From Candidatus Omnitrophota bacterium (GTDB lineage Bacteria > Omnitrophota > Gorgyraeia > Velamenicoccales > Velamenicoccaceae): 14,473 nt of DNA. The notes beneath the pieces are model-generated. The model saw nothing but the letters and a program-made list of their open reading frames with translations. It was not told where the DNA came from and did no database searches. A program made the position numbers and the translations under genes. The DNA lies in the NCBI GenBank assembly GCA_020057345.1, contig JAGVGA010000078.1, positions 1 through 14,473 on the forward strand, read 5' to 3'. Position 1 is the first letter of the stretch. Each line of letters starts with the position of its first letter. Below, in pieces: positions 1,131 to 14,473 of this stretch.

Positions 1131-2510
1131 CTACTGCGCGTATCCCAGGCTTCTGATCTTTTGCTTAAAATCCTCATCCGACTGAAATCTCGCGGATCGA
1201 TACGCACTCGCCCTCAACCTCTCTTGACGCTCTGCTAACAAAAGCTTCATCCTTTCAAAGACATCGCCCTTCTTCTCAGACAGATCGCCGGCCTCCCCGG
1301 GGTCTGACTCCAAATCAAAAAACTGATAGATTTTCCCGGGATAAGCGGGGAAAAAGATCTTTATATATTCGCTGTTTTCGTCTAAAGACTCCGGATACTG
1401 TATAAGTTTCCACGGGCCCTGGATCAAGGCGGTTATATCCCTGTAAAAAGAAAAAAGCTCTCTTCTTTGCGGAGCCCCGATTTTAAGAGAAACGCCCTCC
1501 AGCCCGGGGATCTGATTCTCTCCGATCTCATCTAATATCGTCGGAAAGATATCGATCAGCGCGGCGTTCTCATCGATCTTTTTGCCGAAGGCCTGTCCGG
1601 GCCGCTTCACGATCAGGGGGACCCTGACGATCTCATTAAAAAGCGTAAAGATATGATTAAAATAAAGGTGATGCTCGCCCAAGCTCTCCCCGTGGTCAGA
1701 CGTCAGGATGATCAGGCTCTTGTCGTAAAGGCCCCTCTTTTTCAACCCGTCCAGGAGCTTTCCGATCTCTTCATCCGCATAGCGGATAGCCCCGTCGTAT
1801 TGGGCGATATAATAATTAGGATCGTCGATGCCGTCCTGGGCGATAAGCGCAGGGATATAATCCCATCCGCCTTGATGGGATTTCTCGGATCTGCGAATAG
1901 GCAGAGGTCCGCCGGGTTTAAATGGATACAAGCTCCTGTAAGGCTCAGGCGAGCGATACGGCCTGTGAGAGCCTAAATAATAAACCCATAAAAAAAACGG
2001 CTTTTTTCGGGTCTCGGCCCAATGCAGAGCGGCCTCGGCAACGGAAGAGGGCGAAGGAATGGTCACTACCTCGTCGAGCACGGAACCGAAATTCTTCCTG
2101 AGATTCTCGAAAAAAATCCTCTGGTTACCGAAAACCCCAAGGGCAAAACCGTGGACTTTCAGGGATGAAAAAAGATTGGGCGCGGCCGGGTCCAGGACCG
2201 AATCCCAAAACTGCATCTTGTGTTCAGGCGTATATAGAGAAGTCAGCAGGGAATAATTCGAAGGGATGGTCCAGCTCCCCTGAGAAAAAGCATGGGCGAA
2301 CAGAGTGGCTCGGCGGGCCAGGGCATCGATGTGCGGGCTCGTGGGTCTCGAATACCCGTAACAGCCCAGATGGTCCGGCCGCAAGGCATCCACCATGATA
2401 AGGATGACATTCGGTTTCCCGGCGCCCTCTTTACGGCCAGGCCCCTTAACCAGAAAAAAACCGATAGACAGAAACAGTAAGAAAATGAAGAAGGAAATCT
2501 TTTTTTTCAT
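1131..2510 (-). CDS. Membrane-anchored or secreted sulfatase-fold (AlkP superfamily) enzyme with a Thr-type, NPP-like nucleophile motif; probably not a true sulfatase
   Basis: The ATG at 2510..2508 overlaps the cysN stop TGA at 2509..2507 (ATGA). The N-terminus is MKKK followed by a 17-residue hydrophobic stretch, ISFFIFLLFLSIGFFLV. Sulfatase-fold motifs are present: NVILIMVDALRPDHLGCYGY, ILTSDHGESLGEHH and FDLESDPGEAGDL. The nucleophile region reads SWTIPSNYSLLTSLY instead of C/S-x-P-x-R. The ORF-track start at 2543 is a TTG extension inside cysN and is not favoured. Confidence 0.8.
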   Translation of the reverse strand: MKKKISFFIFLLFLSIGFFLVKGPGRKEGAGKPNVILIMVDALRPDHLGCYGYSRPTSPHIDALARRATLFAHAFSQGSWTIPSNYSLLTSLYTPEHKMQFWDSVLDPAAPNLFSSLKVHGFALGVFGNQRIFFENLRKNFGSVLDEVVTIPSPSSVAEAALHWAETRKKPFFLWVYYLGSHRPYRSPEPYRSLYPFKPGGPLPIRRSEKSHQGGWDYIPALIAQDGIDDPNYYIAQYDGAIRYADEEIGKLLDGLKKRGLYDKSLIILTSDHGESLGEHHLYFNHIFTLFNEIVRVPLIVKRPGQAFGKKIDENAALIDIFPTILDEIGENQIPGLEGVSLKIGAPQRRELFSFYRDITALIQGPWKLIQYPESLDENSEYIKIFFPAYPGKIYQFFDLESDPGEAGDLSEKKGDVFERMKLLLAERQERLRASAYRSARFQSDEDFKQKIRSLGYAQ

Positions 2511-3745
2511 TCCAAGCCGGTGATAACGACGCCTGCGGCGCAAACCTGGCCGTCCGACTCAAGCACAAATCTTCCCAATTCTTCGACAGAGCCAAAAGGC
2601 TCGACGACAAAAGCCCGCTCGGTCTTCAGGATGATTTTGGCCATCTCATTGAGCTTGAGCGAAGCCGCCTCTTTTTCCAAAATCTCCAGGGCCGAAGGGT
2701 CCATGCGGTCACCGATGCTCTCAATCTCGCAGCTCAACTCCTGAGTGGCGCAGCGCAAGATCATCCTTGCCCCGCGGCTTAAAGGCTCATCGCAGAGCCA
2801 GAAGACGCGGCCCTGAAAGCGCTTAAAAGGCACAGGCGCTTTTTCAACCTGACAAAGAACATCCCCGCGCTTGATATCGGAAGAATTTTTTAGGACAACG
2901 CCGATGTTCTCGCCTGCGACGGCCAGGTCCTTCTGTTTAGCGTAAACCCTGATCTCTGCGACGGACGTCTTTTTCCCTGAAGGCAGCACAATCACATCCT
3001 GGCCGCGTTTCAGGCGTCCGGAGGCAACCCTCCCTAAGACCAAGACTTCTTTTTTTACCCTGTAAATATCCTGAACCGGGAAACGCAGCGGCTTATCTTT
3101 TCCTTGCGTCGGACATTCTAGAGAATCCAAAGCGCCCAATAAAGTCGGCCCTTTGTGCCATCGCAGGACCTGTGACCGGCGAAGAACATTTTCTCCGCTC
3201 TTGGCAGACACGGGGATGATCAACGGCGCCTTTAATTTGCTCTTGCTGAAAAAAAGTTCAACCTCAGAGGCTACGGATTCGAATCTGGATCTATCAAAAA
3301 CAGCCAGATCCATTTTATTGACAGCGACAAGGACCTTCTCGATGCCCAACAATTCAAAAAGGGCAATGAGCCTGCGCGTCTGTTCTGTTACGCCCTGCCC
3401 GACATCGACGATGAGGAGGGCGATGTCCGCCTGGGTTGCACCGGTCATCGTGTTTTTGATCAGCTCAACGTGGCCCGGGGTATCGATGAGGCAATACTTT
3501 CTTTTTTTTGTTTTAAAAAAGACCTGCGTCGTGTCGATGGTCCGCTCCTGCCTGCGCTCTTCTTCGAGCTGGTCCAATAAAAACGCCAGCTCCATATCTT
3601 TGCCTAAATCCGCGGAGGCCTTTTTAATCTCAAGAAGTTTTCCGTTGGATAAAGACCGGGTCTCAACGAGGATCCGGCCGATCAGCGTTGACTTTCCATG
3701 GTCAACCTGGCCGCAGATAACTATGGGGATGGCTTTCTTATCCAT
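2507..3745 (-). CDS. cysN: Sulfate adenylyltransferase subunit 1 (CysN/NodQ-type GTPase), short form without an APS kinase domain
   Basis: EF-Tu/CysN-type G motifs are present: GQVDHGKSTLIGRIL (G1), DTPGH (G3), NKMD (G4) and SAKSG (G5). By eye it is collinear with E. coli CysN (PLRFPVQ, VLPSGK and the beta-barrel domains). It lies immediately downstream of cysD. At 412 aa it ends before any CysC-like domain. Confidence 0.85.
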   Translation of the reverse strand: MDKKAIPIVICGQVDHGKSTLIGRILVETRSLSNGKLLEIKKASADLGKDMELAFLLDQLEEERRQERTIDTTQVFFKTKKRKYCLIDTPGHVELIKNTMTGATQADIALLIVDVGQGVTEQTRRLIALFELLGIEKVLVAVNKMDLAVFDRSRFESVASEVELFFSKSKLKAPLIIPVSAKSGENVLRRSQVLRWHKGPTLLGALDSLECPTQGKDKPLRFPVQDIYRVKKEVLVLGRVASGRLKRGQDVIVLPSGKKTSVAEIRVYAKQKDLAVAGENIGVVLKNSSDIKRGDVLCQVEKAPVPFKRFQGRVFWLCDEPLSRGARMILRCATQELSCEIESIGDRMDPSALEILEKEAASLKLNEMAKIILKTERAFVVEPFGSVEELGRFVLESDGQVCAAGVVITGLE

Positions 3746-3780
3746 AAAACCGAATCGGGCGTAACCTGTCTTTGGTGGGA

Positions 3781-4581
3781 TTACATATACCCCAGGCTTC
3801 TCAACCGCTGCATGGTGTACGTATCTTCCTTGTCCTGGGCCCGGCCGCTGCGTTCGGCGACCTTCGTCTTCTCAAGCTCTCGGATGATCTTTGCAATTGT
3901 GTCTGCCCGGGAATCTACCGGAGAACAACAAAGGGCGCACCCGATACTTCGGTAGCGCTTGCCCTTTTTTGCCAGGTAGAGCTCGACGATCGGGATCTTT
4001 TCGGCGAGGGTATACTTCCAGACATCCAGCTCTGTCCAGTGGAGCATAGGGTGAACGCGGATATGCTGTTCGCCCTCGAGCCGCGTCTTATAAAAATCCC
4101 AAAGCTCAGGCGGCTGGTCCTGATAGTTCCAGGTAAAATCCTCGGAGCGCGGGGAGAACACCCTCTCCTTAGCCCGTATGCCGTGCTCATCCCGCCGGAT
4201 AGCCAAGAGCAACGCCTGAAGGCCGCGTTCCCGGATTGTCTGTTTCAACGCCTCGGTCTTCAGTAAATTGCAGCACTCGAATTTGCCGAATTTCGGGTGG
4301 ATACCTTTTTGGAGGGCCTGCGCATTTTTGCTGATGACAAGATCCAGCCCCCATTTTTTGCTGTATTCATCGCGGAAGCGGTAGATCTCCGGGAACTTGA
4401 AGCCCGTATCGATATGAATCACGGGAAAAGGAACCGCGCCGAAAAAGGCCTTGCGTAAGATCCATAAGAGGGCTGTTGAATCTTTCCCCATCGACCACAG
4501 AAAGCCGACATTTTTGAAACGGCTGGTGGCCTCGCGAACGATATAGATGGTCCTGTTTTCCAGATCGCTCAGATAGCTCAT
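3781..4581 (-). CDS. cysD: Sulfate adenylyltransferase subunit 2 (CysD/NodP, PAPS-reductase-like PP-loop ATPase)
   Basis: Contains the PP-loop SMGKDSTALLWILRKAF, plus HIDTGFKFPE, RRDEHGIRAKERVFSPR and HPMLHWTELDVWKY, collinear with E. coli CysD. It lacks the ~30-aa insertion that E. coli CysD has before the C-terminal RxRxxGC segment. ATG at 4581 lies 4 nt after the folE stop. Confidence 0.9.
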   Translation of the reverse strand: MSYLSDLENRTIYIVREATSRFKNVGFLWSMGKDSTALLWILRKAFFGAVPFPVIHIDTGFKFPEIYRFRDEYSKKWGLDLVISKNAQALQKGIHPKFGKFECCNLLKTEALKQTIRERGLQALLLAIRRDEHGIRAKERVFSPRSEDFTWNYQDQPPELWDFYKTRLEGEQHIRVHPMLHWTELDVWKYTLAEKIPIVELYLAKKGKRYRSIGCALCCSPVDSRADTIAKIIRELEKTKVAERSGRAQDKEDTYTMQRLRSLGYM

Positions 4582-9518: not shown

Positions 9519-10220
9519 TTAGACACTGAATTTGAATTCCATGATGTCGCCGTCTTTGACGATATACTCTTTGCCTTCCTGGCGCAGGTGCCCCTCATTC
9601 TTCGCCTGGTTGACATTACCGACTTTAACCAAGGCCTCATACGCCATGACCTCGGCGCGAATGAACCCGCGCGCGATATCCGAATGGATGCAGCCCGCCG
9701 CCTCAATCGCCGTCGCGTCCTTTCTCATCTCCCAGGCGCGCGACTCTTTGACGCCGCCGGTCAAGAAACTGACGCGGCCGGCCTGGTCATAGGCCTTGCG
9801 CGCGAGCACCGGCAAATCATCCGCCTCGACCTTGTCGATCAAAACAACCGGCTTGATCGTAACGAAATTATTATTGGCGATCCACTTCTTTTCCTCCTCG
9901 CTAAAAGTACCGGCGCACAAAGGCATCTCTTTTTCAAGGAGCTGCTGGCAACGGATCAAAAGGGCCTTCTCCTGGTCGCTCGCCGCCTTGGACAGCTTGC
10001 TTTCGACGATCTCCATGTCCATGATGAGGAGGTCCAATTTTTTCTCATTCAAACAGACGATCGCATCGGCATTTTTAAGGTCTTTTTCCGTTATGAATTC
10101 AACCTGAATGGCGGTGACCTTCGCAGAGCGGTAAAGCTCCTTTAACTTCTCCAGGCGCGCGTCAGGCAGGCTCTTTTTTCCAAAAGGAAAATCAGGGATT
10201 CCGAAAACACTGGCTTTCAT
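9519..10220 (-). CDS. YchF/OLA1-derived protein that keeps the helical and TGS (DUF933-like) C-terminal regions but lacks the P-loop NTPase motifs
   Basis: The C-terminal ~85 aa (ESRAWEMRKDATAIEAAGCIHSDIARGFIRAEVMAYEALV...LRQEGKEYIVKDGDIMEFKFSV) aligns by eye with the E. coli YchF C-terminus ([33 protein letters not shown]...[22 protein letters not shown]). The middle region (FSEEEKKWIANNNFVTIKPVVLI) matches the YchF helical insert. No GxxxxGKS/T, DxxG or NxxE motif is present. The ATG at 10220 is favoured, with GGAGAGG about 8 nt upstream. The GTG at 10229 is an alternative start. Confidence 0.75.
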   Translation of the reverse strand: MKASVFGIPDFPFGKKSLPDARLEKLKELYRSAKVTAIQVEFITEKDLKNADAIVCLNEKKLDLLIMDMEIVESKLSKAASDQEKALLIRCQQLLEKEMPLCAGTFSEEEKKWIANNNFVTIKPVVLIDKVEADDLPVLARKAYDQAGRVSFLTGGVKESRAWEMRKDATAIEAAGCIHSDIARGFIRAEVMAYEALVKVGNVNQAKNEGHLRQEGKEYIVKDGDIMEFKFSV

Positions 10221-10246: not shown

Positions 10247-12205
10247 TTATTCCTCCTCGACCTTATGCCGAGGATACTGGGCGACGATCGACTGCGCGAT
10301 CTTTTGCGGCACTTCCTCATAATGGGAAAAACGCATGGTGTAACTTCCGCGGCCGCCGGTCATGGAACGAAGGTCGGTGGCATAGCGGAACATCTCGACC
10401 AAAGGCACCTGCGCCTTGATCGTCTGGTTTTTTGAACGGGCCTCGACGCCCATAACCCTCCCTCTGCGGGAATTCAGGTCTGACGGGATCGTGCCCATGT
10501 ACTCTTCGGGGACCGTGATCTCCACATCCATGATCGGTTCGAGAATAATTGGAACGGCGTCCATCGCCGCCTTGCGGAACGCAAGAGCCCCCGCGATCTG
10601 AAACGCGATGTCGGACGAATCGACATCGTGATAAGAACCGTCATAGAGGGTGACCCTGATATCAACCATGGGAAAACTTGTGATGACACCCCCCACCATG
10701 GCGTTGCGGATCCCCTTTTCCACCGAAGGAATGAAGTTACGCGGAATCGCGCCTCCGACGATCTTGTCCACAAATTCAAAAGCCTTGCCGCGCTCGATGG
10801 GCGCAAGCTCAATCCACACGTCGCCGTACTGGCCCCTGCCGCCGGACTGCTTCTTGTGTTTGCCCTGCGCCTTAGCCAATTTTTTCACCGTCTCTTTATA
10901 AGGGATCTTCGGCGTGCCGATCTCGACGGCAACGTTGTACCTTTCCTTTAGGCGCTTGACCATGACATCAATGTGCTGATCACCCATGCCTGAGATAACC
11001 GTCTCTTTGGTCTGTGTGTCGCGGGAGACCTTAAATGTTGGGTCGCTTGCGCAAAGCTTGGCGAGAGCCTCAGAGATCTTCTCCTCGTCCTGCCTCGTCT
11101 TTGGCTTGACCGAAGACGAGAAAACCGGTTCAGGAAAAACGATCGGGTCAAAAACCACCTGCTGCTTTTCATCGGAGAGCGTATCGCCCAGAAATGTCTC
11201 TTTGAGCTTGGCGACGGCCACGATATCCCCGCAAAAACCGGCCTGGATCGCGCGCTGCTCTTTACCCTGAAGGATCATGAGCTGACCTATCCTCTCTTTG
11301 GCGGTGCGCGAAGCGTTTAAAAAGCCGGTGTTGGAGGCAAGCTTGCCGGAAAATATCCTTAAGACCGTCAGCTGACCGACAAAAGGATCGGACACGGACT
11401 TAAATACAAACGCGGAAAAAGGCGCGTCTTCAGTCAGCTTGATCTGTTTTTTCTCCTGGGTATTCGGGTCAGAGGCGAAAACAGGCCTTCTGTCCAACGG
11501 CGAAGGCAGGTAATCGACAATGCCGTCCAGCAATTCCTTAAGGCCTTTGTCCGCGAAAGCCGAGCCGACGAAGATCGGATAGATCTTGCCTTCGACCACC
11601 GCACTTTTAAGCGACTTTTTCAGCTCCTCCTCTTTCATCTCTTTTCCTTCCAGATACTTTTCCAATAGGGCGTCGTCGCTTTCCGCGATGGTCTCGGTGA
11701 GCTCTGCCGAGAACGGCGTTTTGATGACGCAGGCGTTTTTGGAAAAACGCTCCTGAAGTTCTTTGATGATCGCCTCGACGCTCACATTCTCCTTATCGGT
11801 CTTATTGATAAAGATGAGCCTCGGTAAGCCCGCTTCTTCCAAAAGGTCCCAGGCGCGCTCGGTCCCGACTTCGATCCCGCCGGAAGCGTCGATCAAAATG
11901 ACCGCGCCGTCCACCGCGCGGACCGAAGAGATCATGTCCGCTATGAAATCCGCATATCCCGGGGTATCGACGATCTGAATAAAATGGTTTTTCCAGTTTA
12001 AGTTCAGGATGCTCGAATTGATGGAGTTCTTGCGGTCGATCTCATCGGCGTTGTAATCGCTGACCGTGTTGCCTTCGATGATCTTGCCTTTGCGCGACGT
12101 AGCGCCGGCGGCAAAAAGGAGGGCTTCGCAAAGAAACGTCTTCCCGGCCTGGGCATGCGAAACAAAAACAACGCTCCTTTTGGCTTCAGGTTTGACATTG
12201 TCCAT
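10247..12205 (-). CDS. Elongation factor G family paralogue (divergent, 652 aa) with non-canonical GTPase motifs
   Basis: All five EF-G domains are collinear with canonical EF-G: SHAQAGKT (G1), DTPGY (G3, with Tyr where His is expected), NKTD (G4), GSAFADKG (G5), YLPSPLD, SGMGDQHIDV, GGRGQYGD, TLYDGSYHDVDSS and YATDLRS. AGGAGA sits 6 nt upstream of the ATG at 12205. Confidence 0.85.
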   Translation of the reverse strand: MDNVKPEAKRSVVFVSHAQAGKTFLCEALLFAAGATSRKGKIIEGNTVSDYNADEIDRKNSINSSILNLNWKNHFIQIVDTPGYADFIADMISSVRAVDGAVILIDASGGIEVGTERAWDLLEEAGLPRLIFINKTDKENVSVEAIIKELQERFSKNACVIKTPFSAELTETIAESDDALLEKYLEGKEMKEEELKKSLKSAVVEGKIYPIFVGSAFADKGLKELLDGIVDYLPSPLDRRPVFASDPNTQEKKQIKLTEDAPFSAFVFKSVSDPFVGQLTVLRIFSGKLASNTGFLNASRTAKERIGQLMILQGKEQRAIQAGFCGDIVAVAKLKETFLGDTLSDEKQQVVFDPIVFPEPVFSSSVKPKTRQDEEKISEALAKLCASDPTFKVSRDTQTKETVISGMGDQHIDVMVKRLKERYNVAVEIGTPKIPYKETVKKLAKAQGKHKKQSGGRGQYGDVWIELAPIERGKAFEFVDKIVGGAIPRNFIPSVEKGIRNAMVGGVITSFPMVDIRVTLYDGSYHDVDSSDIAFQIAGALAFRKAAMDAVPIILEPIMDVEITVPEEYMGTIPSDLNSRRGRVMGVEARSKNQTIKAQVPLVEMFRYATDLRSMTGGRGSYTMRFSHYEEVPQKIAQSIVAQYPRHKVEEE

Positions 12206-12266: not shown

Positions 12267-13433
12267 CTATTCGACGTAGGTGTAGATCTTTCCCTTGTAA
12301 TTACGCAGGACATGCTTGCCCTTGTCCTGGGAGATGAGGTAATTCGGGCCGACGGGAATCTTGCCGCCGCCGCCGGGCGCGTCCACCACATAGGTCGGCA
12401 CCGCGTAGCCCGATGTGAAACCGCGCAGTTTTTCAATGATATTGATGCCCACCGCGACCGGCGTACGAAAATGCGCCGTTCCCTTGACCGGATCGCACTG
12501 ATAAATATAGTATGGCCTGACCCTTATCTTCAAAAGCTCATGCATCAGTTTTTTCATGATATAAGGTTTATCATTGATTCCTTTTAAAAGAACGGTCTGA
12601 CTGCCCAGCGGTATGCCGCTGTCGGCCAACATGTCGCAAGCAGCCTTGCACCTCTTGGAGATCTCCCTGGGATGATTGAAGTGCATGCTGATCCATAGAG
12701 GCTTGTATTTTTTGAGCATCGCGACAAAAGGCTCGGTGATGCGCTGCGGCAAAGATACGGGCACGCGCGTGCCCAGGCGGACAAATTCGACATGCGGGAT
12801 CGCGGTGACCTTCTTTAGGATCTCCTCGAGCTCGTCATCTTCCAGCATGAACGGATCGCCTCCGGAGATGAGCACGTCGCGGATCTTTTTATTGGAACGG
12901 ATATAGTCAATAGCGGCGTCGATCGTCTTAGAATTGATGGAAGAAACCTGTTTTTCTCCGACGAGCCTCCGGCGCGTGCAGTGGCGACAGTACATCGCGC
13001 ACTGCTCGGTGCCTAATAGAAGGACCCTGTCCGGATAACGGTGGACGAGGCCGCTGACAGGCGAATCCCTGTCCTCGGCGCACGGGTCAATGAACTCTTG
13101 ATTGCCGAAACGAAATTCGTCGATCAAAGGGATCGCCTGCCGGCGAATCGGACATTCCGGATCATTGGGATCCATAAGCGTCACCCAGTAAGGCGTGATC
13201 GCCATGGAGAGCCTGCCGTTGGATTTTTTGATCCCCTCTTCTTCCTGCGGCGTCAAGACAAGGACCTTGGCAATCGCCTCAAGGGTATGGATTCGGTTCT
13301 TGATCTGCCAATGCCAGTCTTCCCACGACTCTTCAGGGGTATCCTTCCATAGAGAAACCTTTTTGTAATCGCCGATGGAGCTGCGACGAAGGATGACTTG
13401 CGGCTGCTGAAGTTCGATGACGGGGATCGTCAA
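12267..13433 (-). CDS. kamA: L-lysine 2,3-aminomutase (radical SAM/PLP, KamA/AblA type), short form
   Basis: Near-continuous similarity by eye to Clostridium subterminale LAM: WEDWHWQIKNRI, SMAITPYW, DSPVSGLVHRYPDRVLLL, the radical-SAM CAMYCRHCTRRR, HFNHPRE, RVRPYYIYQCD and YVVDAPGGGGKIPV. The only start codon downstream of the upstream gene's stop that keeps the conserved N-terminus is the TTG at 13433. It has GGAGG 5 nt upstream and overlaps the upstream stop (TTGA). The ATG at 13640 would require a 200+ nt overlap. Confidence 0.85.
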   Translation of the reverse strand: MTIPVIELQQPQVILRRSSIGDYKKVSLWKDTPEESWEDWHWQIKNRIHTLEAIAKVLVLTPQEEEGIKKSNGRLSMAITPYWVTLMDPNDPECPIRRQAIPLIDEFRFGNQEFIDPCAEDRDSPVSGLVHRYPDRVLLLGTEQCAMYCRHCTRRRLVGEKQVSSINSKTIDAAIDYIRSNKKIRDVLISGGDPFMLEDDELEEILKKVTAIPHVEFVRLGTRVPVSLPQRITEPFVAMLKKYKPLWISMHFNHPREISKRCKAACDMLADSGIPLGSQTVLLKGINDKPYIMKKLMHELLKIRVRPYYIYQCDPVKGTAHFRTPVAVGINIIEKLRGFTSGYAVPTYVVDAPGGGGKIPVGPNYLISQDKGKHVLRNYKGKIYTYVE

Positions 13434-14434
13434 CTCTCCCTCCCCTCTTTTTTCAAGCCGACGCGCAGAAGAGCGATCTCCAAAATCTTGACGATGAGCC
13501 CGTTGAAAGTCCACCCTTCGGCCTTTGCCACCAGAGGAAAAACATCTTCCGTTGAAAGCGACGGCAGAGGATTGACCTCCAGAACATAAGGATTGCCCTT
13601 TTTGTCCACGCGAAAATCCACTCTTCCGAAATCGCGGCAATCCACCGCCTGATAAGCCTTGACCGCGAGGACGCGCAACTTATCCTCCAGGGCTTTTGAG
13701 ATCTTGGGCGGACAGATATAGCTGACGTCCGTGCCTTTCAGCCGCCGGGAGGTGTAAACAAGATCGCCTAAGTCCAGCTTGCCGAGTATGCCGATCTGCA
13801 CCGGCGCCAGCGCGCACGCAGGATCATTGCCGATGACGAGCACGGTGAATTCGCTTCCTGAAATAAACTCTTCCACAAGGGCGGACTGCTTGTAGATACG
13901 ATTCACCTCCAACACCTGGCCCTTCAATCTCTTTTTGTCCGATACGATCGAATCTTCGGAAATCCCCTTAGAAGACCCCTCATGCCTGGGCTTGACGATA
14001 AAAGGAAATCTCATGGACGTATGGTTTGTCAAGTCCGTACGCTCATCCGCGATAAAAAATTTTGGCGTCGGCACGCCGTCCGCAATGAAAACCTTCTTGG
14101 CCATGGCCTTATCCAGCGTCACGCCGAGGGTCAAGCCGTCGCTGCCCACAAAAGGGATCTTAAAAAAATCCAGGATGACGGGGACCTCGGATTCGCGGTT
14201 CCGGTTCCCCGCGCCCTCGCACATGTTGAAAACGATGTCCACGCCGGGCTTGGGGCACTTAGACAGGAGCTTGCGCGCATGGCCGATCTTGACGACTTCA
14301 TAACCTCCGGAGGCGATCGCTTCACAGACCTCGTTGATCGTCACCTGTCTGTCAAATTCCGCCTTCGCATCATTCGGCGATTCTTTGGTCTTTCGGTGGT
14401 CCGACTTTAAATCGTAAGTGAGTCCTATTCTCAT
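13430..14434 (-). CDS. D-alanine--D-alanine ligase family ATP-grasp enzyme (non-canonical subfamily, substrate unknown)
   Basis: Ddl-type ATP-grasp motifs are present: FPFIVKPRHEGSSKGIS, VEEFISGSEFTVLVIG and FGRVDFRVDKKGNPYVLEVNPLPSL. The N-terminus MRIGLTYDLKSD...AEFD differs from housekeeping DdlA/B. ATG at 14434 is favoured. The frame stays open to the window edge (14473), so a longer N-terminus cannot be excluded. Confidence 0.8.
   Translation of the reverse strand: MRIGLTYDLKSDHRKTKESPNDAKAEFDRQVTINEVCEAIASGGYEVVKIGHARKLLSKCPKPGVDIVFNMCEGAGNRNRESEVPVILDFFKIPFVGSDGLTLGVTLDKAMAKKVFIADGVPTPKFFIADERTDLTNHTSMRFPFIVKPRHEGSSKGISEDSIVSDKKRLKGQVLEVNRIYKQSALVEEFISGSEFTVLVIGNDPACALAPVQIGILGKLDLGDLVYTSRRLKGTDVSYICPPKISKALEDKLRVLAVKAYQAVDCRDFGRVDFRVDKKGNPYVLEVNPLPSLSTEDVFPLVAKAEGWTFNGLIVKILEIALLRVGLKKEGRES
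13439..13443 (-). promoter_or_regulatory. Shine-Dalgarno (GGAGG) for kamA, embedded in the last codons of the ATP-grasp gene
   Basis: The minus strand reads GGGAGGGAGAGTTGACG. GGAGG lies 5 nt upstream of the TTG at 13433, and the same stretch encodes G-R-E-S-stop of the upstream gene. Confidence 0.6.
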
Positions 14435-14473
14435 GAGATCGCCCTTAAAGAAAAAGGGACCCTTGCCTTTCAA

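Follow-up and report, generated by a model that had tools for sequence, protein, structure and literature searches.

The window, which is the whole 14,473-nt stretch of Omnitrophota DNA analysed here, carries on its reverse strand an unbroken ORF encoding a protein with the five EF-G Pfam domains. The protein, hereafter EF-G2, matches the profile PRK12740.1-5 at 864 bits against a cut-off of 583, and its AlphaFold model has the full EF-G fold (TM 0.94 to ribosome-bound EF-G, 7N2V). The gene, its features and its two neighbours are located as follows.

10247..12205 (-): EFG II / EF-G2 paralogue, 652 aa, five EF-G domains
12134..12160 (-): G1 P-loop SHAQAGKTF, residues 16-24
12020..12034 (-): switch I / G2, RKNSI, residues 58-62
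11954..11956 (-): Tyr84 (TAT), catalytic His position of switch II, in G3 DTPGY
11594..11734 (-): reduced G' subdomain, residues 158-204
10820..10861 (-): loop I of domain IV, residues 449-462
10628..10630 (-): His526, tip His of domain IV (T. thermophilus H573), conserved
9519..10220 (-): YchF-like neighbour, 233 aa, downstream, 26 nt from EF-G2
12267..13640 (-): KamA-family radical SAM aminomutase, upstream, as the called ORF; the true start is probably further downstream

The gene order ATP-grasp, kamA, EF-G2, ychF-like, purH is conserved. The KamA aminomutase and a D-Ala-D-Ala-ligase-like ATP-grasp protein lie directly upstream of EF-G2 (12267-14473, minus strand), and their order is conserved across the clade, even in genome G031, where no EFG II was found. 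Elsewhere in the window, a CysD-like and CysN-like pair (2507-4581, minus strand) stands beside a sulfatase gene. By sequence the pair is of the ATP sulfurylase type and looks ordinary; the CysN-like protein has EF-Tu-like GTPase domains.

EF-G2 was aligned directly to T. thermophilus and S. aureus EF-G. Tyr84 of DTPGY (codon TAT, 11956-11954) lies opposite the catalytic His87 of T. thermophilus EF-G, and Ser61 lies opposite the switch I Thr (Thr64). The switch I, RKNSI, is of the EFG II RxxSI type and retains Arg58. In the P-loop, SHAQAGKTF, His17 is retained and the gate Ile is replaced by Ala18, and the EFG II-type Leu25 follows. These three motifs had been described in an earlier note on this DNA, and its readings of them hold. 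Its account of domain IV does not. The note took D462 for a lost tip His, but D462 corresponds to T. thermophilus H509, and Asp is also found there in canonical Firmicute EF-G, namely in S. aureus EF-G (PDB 2XEX) and in 40/40 canonical Bacillota EF-Gs fetched. The true tip His is T. thermophilus H573 (PDB 1FNM is the H573A mutant). Its counterpart here is H526 of the SYHDVDSS loop, and the equivalent His is kept in every aligned row covering that position. D462 is thus no deviation. Loop I of domain IV has the EFG II lysines K451/K452 and an intact GGRGQ.

Across 54 short-G' orthologue loci, a set that includes 3 duplicates, the catalytic position is Tyr in 50 and Phe in the other 4, so the changes in EF-G2 are neither chance nor an assembly error. 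A pseudogene or sequencing error is ruled out by the intact frame, by orthologues at 71-82% identity and by low dN/dS.

Assignment to the EFG II family

EF-G2 is almost certainly an EFG II paralogue. The criteria for EFG II in Margus et al. 2011 (PMC3150367) are a branch of its own in the tree, a switch I relaxed to xxxSx, a set of twelve conserved positions and common indels in G'. We mapped the twelve positions onto EF-G2 through T. thermophilus alignments and found 9/12 exact. Among the five type I positions (Gly16, Leu25, Thr291, Gly333 and Lys352 in 1WDT numbering), L25, G314 and K333 are exact and S270 is conservative for Thr. Position 16 has Ser, not Gly or Ala; 86% of the EFG II family and 23/54 clade loci have Gly there. 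The EFG I residue is found at 0/5 of these positions. Among the seven type II positions, D177, L225, K451, K452, E496 and G586 are exact and I211 is conservative for Val. RGITI is relaxed to xxxSx, with Ser61 in RKNSI, and Ser is found in 52/54 clade loci. G1, the DxPG of G3, G4, G5 and the acidic G' patch are all conserved. The gene is located outside the str operon, between kamA and ychF/purH, and is accompanied by a second EF-G.

Like the EFG II proteins of Margus et al. (PMC3150367), EF-G2 has the xxxSx switch I, in the RxxSI form of Clostridia and delta-proteobacteria, Leu25, the Gly and Lys of domain II, the KK of domain IV and an indel in G' region III. Also like them, it combines a relaxed G domain with a conserved domain IV and always stands beside another EF-G. 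It differs from them in having Ser for Gly16, Ser for Thr and Ile for Val. Omnitrophota are not among the EFG II sub-subgroups in the available part of that paper, and a literature search for Omnitrophota and elongation factor G returned nothing relevant.

In a quick-search tree of 53 proteins, rooted at the midpoint and excluding Thermus, Mycobacterium and spdEFG sequences, the 36 His-less proteins stood apart from the 17 canonical ones on one branch with an SH-aLRT of 100. The 36 come from Omnitrophota, Synergistota, Deferribacterota, Aquificota and delta-proteobacterial lineages. The Omnitrophota EFG II proteins form a single group in this tree, with EF-G2 nested among them; most of its closest named relatives come from Candidatus Omnitrophota MAGs. 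The sampled EFG II proteins carry Tyr, Phe, Asp or Val in place of the catalytic His, whose loss is therefore usual within this set; Asp or Val was observed in delta-proteobacterial lineages (L091, L120, L125, L098, L102 and L121).

The best PDB matches of residues 8-100 were M. smegmatis EF-G2 (9K0Z) and T. thermophilus EF-G-2 (1WDT), both of which have Tyr. Like T. thermophilus EF-G-2 (1WDT/2DY1), EF-G2 has Tyr after DxPG, the P-loop His and Leu, and a five-domain fold (TM 0.77, 35% identity). The Thermus protein differs in having its own switch I, a length of 665 aa and, by alignment offsets, about 38 more residues around G'. With M. smegmatis EF-G2 (9K0Z/9K10) our protein shares an identical switch II octapeptide and the Ser in switch I. 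However, the P-loop His, the Arg of switch I and the canonical G4 and G5 are missing from the M. smegmatis protein. The changes that the earlier note treated as unusual are instead common in, or diagnostic of, EFG II. The His-to-Tyr substitutions are real but mark an already known subfamily, and their discovery value is small, since His-to-Tyr EF-G2 proteins have already been described, structurally solved and mutationally tested.

Other assignments were rejected. EFG I (canonical fusA) is ruled out because EF-G2 lacks RGITI, the catalytic His and a str operon location; the TIGR00484 profile was passed only narrowly (698 vs 659). Assignment to spdEFG1 or spdEFG2, which co-occur where EFG I is absent, is ruled out by the EFG I in the str operon. 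The KDG insertion in switch I that marks spdEFG1 was absent from the ungapped alignment of residues 10-100. Tet(M)/Tet(O) proteins are excluded by profile scores below cut-off (334 vs 775 and 232 vs 1100 bits), and the Tet-like ribosome protection considered in the earlier note finds no support.

The canonical copy, distribution and selection

The assembly covers 770 kb at 78% completeness, and EF-G2 was the sole full-length EF-G found in it by tblastn. The end of contig C25 carries rpsL, rpsG and then the first 20 codons (60 nt) of a canonical fusA, which stops at the contig edge within the AHID of its P-loop; a tuf fragment begins at the edge of another contig. EF-G2 as the sole EF-G of the genome is ruled out, since the assembly breaks inside the canonical fusA. 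The str-operon fusA for which the earlier note had suggested a search is thus present, cut off at the contig edge, and the description of EF-G2 as an EF-G paralogue is borne out.

Two EF-G matches were found in 21/21 same-family genomes. All second copies fetched from relatives (20/20) have canonical G2 and G3 motifs, and the ones inspected lie in rpsL-rpsG-fusA-tuf, or in the portion of it inside the fetched stretch. A canonical EF-G was confirmed in all 10 same-family genomes from which the second copy had been fetched. The possibility that the partner copy is spdEFG1 and EF-G2 the recycling factor is ruled out, because the partner is the str-operon EFG I. Some relatives have a third EF-G of 1040-1100 aa with canonical G2 and G3 (L050:3297-6425, plus strand; L058:3116-6424, plus strand). 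Its N-terminus is extended by 340-410 aa, hydrophobic at the start and without a Pfam hit, and long frames resembling it were seen in six further genomes.

About 49 of the 121 genomes from the phylum closely match the EF-G2 G domain, as judged by a gap in scores (E <= 1e-35 vs >= 1e-31), with the motifs checked in the fetched ones only. Among the 121 genomes, EFG II was not found in several Omnitrophota families and was patchy within one family, so EF-G2 is an accessory gene. EF-G2 is inherited within Omnitrophota and kept beside the canonical str-operon EF-G.

In ten genomes with both copies, mean identity was 70% for EFG II and 77% for EFG I. The G domain was less conserved in EFG II than in EFG I (64% vs 76%), whereas domain IV was at 80% vs 79% and was the best-conserved domain among EF-G2 orthologues. 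A relaxed G domain with a conserved domain IV is the EFG II pattern given in Margus et al. 2011 (PMC3150367). Three close EF-G2 pairs had a dN/dS of about 0.05-0.06. Such values indicate a gene that is maintained, evidently under purifying selection. EF-G2 pieces of 159-308 nt, 98-100% identical, were found in three metatranscriptomes, of which DNA carry-over is a possible source. In a promoter and terminator scan, promoter hits were at shuffle level and one weak hairpin (12255-12242) was seen upstream of EF-G2.

The shortened G' subdomain

From NKxD to YLPSP, EF-G2 spans 98 aa, compared with 140-144 aa in 60 canonical EF-Gs. The earlier note had estimated a loss of about 44 residues here, and the comparison confirms a 44-aa deletion, located after residue ~167. 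EFG II proteins from other phyla measure 139-142 aa over the same span, those from several other Omnitrophota lineages 128-130 aa, and those from one lineage 115 aa. Spans of 96-98 aa were found in a supported clade of 15 tree rows, which includes EF-G2, and in one separately placed sequence. L037, from genome G037, has a 98-aa span with Phe at the catalytic position and is placed away from the main short-G' clade; its deletion, of the same size, is possibly independent.

In the AlphaFold model (pLDDT 89), G' consists of three helices (167-175, 178-185 and 192-204) and has no beta-sheet. The acidic residues E171, E175 and D178 remain and are near-invariant within the clade. Judged by alignment offset, E171 and E175 are the counterparts of E. 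coli 224 and 228, two residues in contact with L12. The deletion removes the beta part of G' and retains the acidic L12-contact helices. Archaeal EF-2 (Pyrococcus horikoshii, PMC5887453) offers a precedent for a helix-only G', being a working translocase in which G' is three helices (31 aa). It differs from EF-G2 in having a normal GTPase cycle and in binding the P stalk rather than L12, and is no close relation. G' is also a known indel hot spot of EFG II, according to Margus et al. 2011 (PMC3150367). Taken together, the hot spot and the archaeal three-helix G' suggest that the deletion is a trait of the lineage and does not disturb the stalk contact. The G' deletion is the one feature of EF-G2 for which no named precedent was found, and apart from this lineage-specific trimming EF-G2 is ordinary.

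Proposed activity and role

Tentatively, with a probability of about 0.45, we propose from its sequence that EF-G2 may be an accessory, slow back-up translocase with low GTP turnover. EF-G2 would bind GTP, which is likely because the GKT of G1, a Ser at the Mg-coordinating position, the NKxD of G4 and the GSA of G5 are kept. It would dock on the ribosome through His17/Arg58, through the acidic G' helices meeting L12 and through domains II-V, and the retention of all these makes docking likely. Ribosome-triggered hydrolysis would be weak, Tyr84 being unable to place the water; the Tyr for His and the change of both gate isoleucines (Ala18 and Asn60) make this probable. The intact domain IV would still drive slow tRNA-mRNA movement. 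Both loop I glycines, which are required for translocation, are present. On this reading, EF-G2 would be a non-essential back-up translocase with a low GTP cost, used probably when the cell is stressed or short of energy.

The weak ribosome-stimulated hydrolysis expected in the earlier note is probably right, by analogy with mycobacteria. The same His-to-Tyr change is found in M. smegmatis EF-G2, and H88Y nearly abolishes the GTPase of M. smegmatis EF-G1 (2026 preprint, 10.64898/2026.05.25.727771). However, the note's step from there to a non-translocase role is not justified. T. thermophilus EF-G-2, with an identical Tyr, is reported to hydrolyse GTP and to translocate, elongating slowly. E. 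coli H91A also still translocates, up to 30-fold slower. Bacteroides thetaiotaomicron EF-G2 (BT2167, PDB 8DMF), likewise an accessory EF-G paralogue, is our model for the proposed mechanism; it supports slow translocation without GTPase activity, under carbon limitation. It differs from the Omnitrophota protein in length (718 aa) and shares 30% identity with it. EF-G2 is not its orthologue in the narrow sense, as it scores 538 against a cut-off of 1000 on the BT2167 profile. The probability given above reflects the retention of the residues lost in Mycobacterium, the intact domain IV loops and the translocation by H91A. GTPase-dead canonical EF-G stays stuck on the ribosome, forming very stable complexes, so EF-G2 would need a release route. 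The three studied EF-G2s (Thermus, Bacteroides and Mycobacterium) behave differently.

The stable complexes of GTPase-dead EF-G would also suit a stress or hibernation factor that does not translocate, as in M. smegmatis, and that would bind 70S/50S in the GTP form and idle ribosomes. We consider this role rather unlikely for EF-G2. The M. smegmatis protein, whose switch II motif (9K0Z) is identical, has no ribosome-dependent GTPase, does not recycle ribosomes, fails to complement fusA-ts and acts under stress. However, the P-loop His, switch I Arg, G4 and G5 that it has lost are all kept in EF-G2, whose domain IV loops are intact and most strongly constrained. It is unlikely that EF-G2 is instead a GTPase-competent back-up translocase, hydrolysing GTP without the His as T. 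thermophilus EF-G-2 does. The 1WDT protein, with the same Tyr and P-loop His, is reported to have intrinsic and ribosome-dependent GTPase and low elongation activity. Residue 16 of EF-G2 is Ser, however, and Margus (PMC3150367) ties Gly at this position to higher intrinsic activity; in the canonical background of M. smegmatis EF-G1, moreover, H88Y leaves almost no activity.

The YchF-like protein downstream (9519-10220), or mini-YchF, lacks the P-loop, switch I and switch II motifs and is conserved at 35-74% identity. One YchF C-terminal domain per genome was found in 21/21 same-family genomes (one of them a single contig), in a short frame or adjoining EF-G2, and mini-YchF is apparently the only YchF in all 21. 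A P-loop-less YchF is more unusual than EF-G2 itself. In other class members (L145, L146, L149, L176, L177 and L178) YchF is 335-378 aa long and its nucleotide motifs are eroded: the P-loop is altered and a canonical switch I is lacking. This suggests stepwise decay of the ATPase in Omnitrophota.

It is improbable, though compatible with the other readings, that EF-G2 and the P-loop-less YchF work as a two-protein module. Both families act on the ribosome, and mini-YchF adjoins EF-G2 in 45/54 short-G' loci, 8 of the other 9 ending at contig edges. However, the adjacent cases are essentially one clade and so are not independent. In G031 (96% complete), where no EFG II was found, ATP-grasp, KamA, mini-YchF and purH are all retained, with a different gene in between; G030 has mini-YchF, again with no EFG II found; and G037 has the 98-aa G' form with a 357-aa YchF elsewhere. 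A complex prediction for the two proteins scored 0.00 and was counted neither way. From gene content and order, mini-YchF is a conserved neighbour, not an obligate partner; we read the arrangement as gene order passed down by descent and give a functional pair a small chance. Highly doubtful is a nucleotide-sparing ribosome module of this Omnitrophota clade, in which the G'-stripped EF-G2 and the motif-less sole YchF would shift or split stalled ribosomes with no NTP hydrolysed.

EF-G copies are known to share out their tasks, and the G domain, by direct alignment, spans a Tet(M)-like length, but a dedicated recycling factor of the Borrelia or mitochondrial EF-G2 type, or a Tet(M)-like protection protein, is very improbable. 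The relatives' second copy is an EFG I located in rpsL-rpsG-fusA-tuf, so the two copies need not divide duties between them. The His is retained in mitochondrial EF-G2, and the Tet profiles score far below cut-off.

EF-G2 is thus a natural variant that retains more of the ribosome- and nucleotide-binding residues than mycobacterial EF-G2, yet has neither the His nor the G' beta-sheet. As such it could help to explain the differences in activity among EF-G2s and what the G' beta-sheet does.
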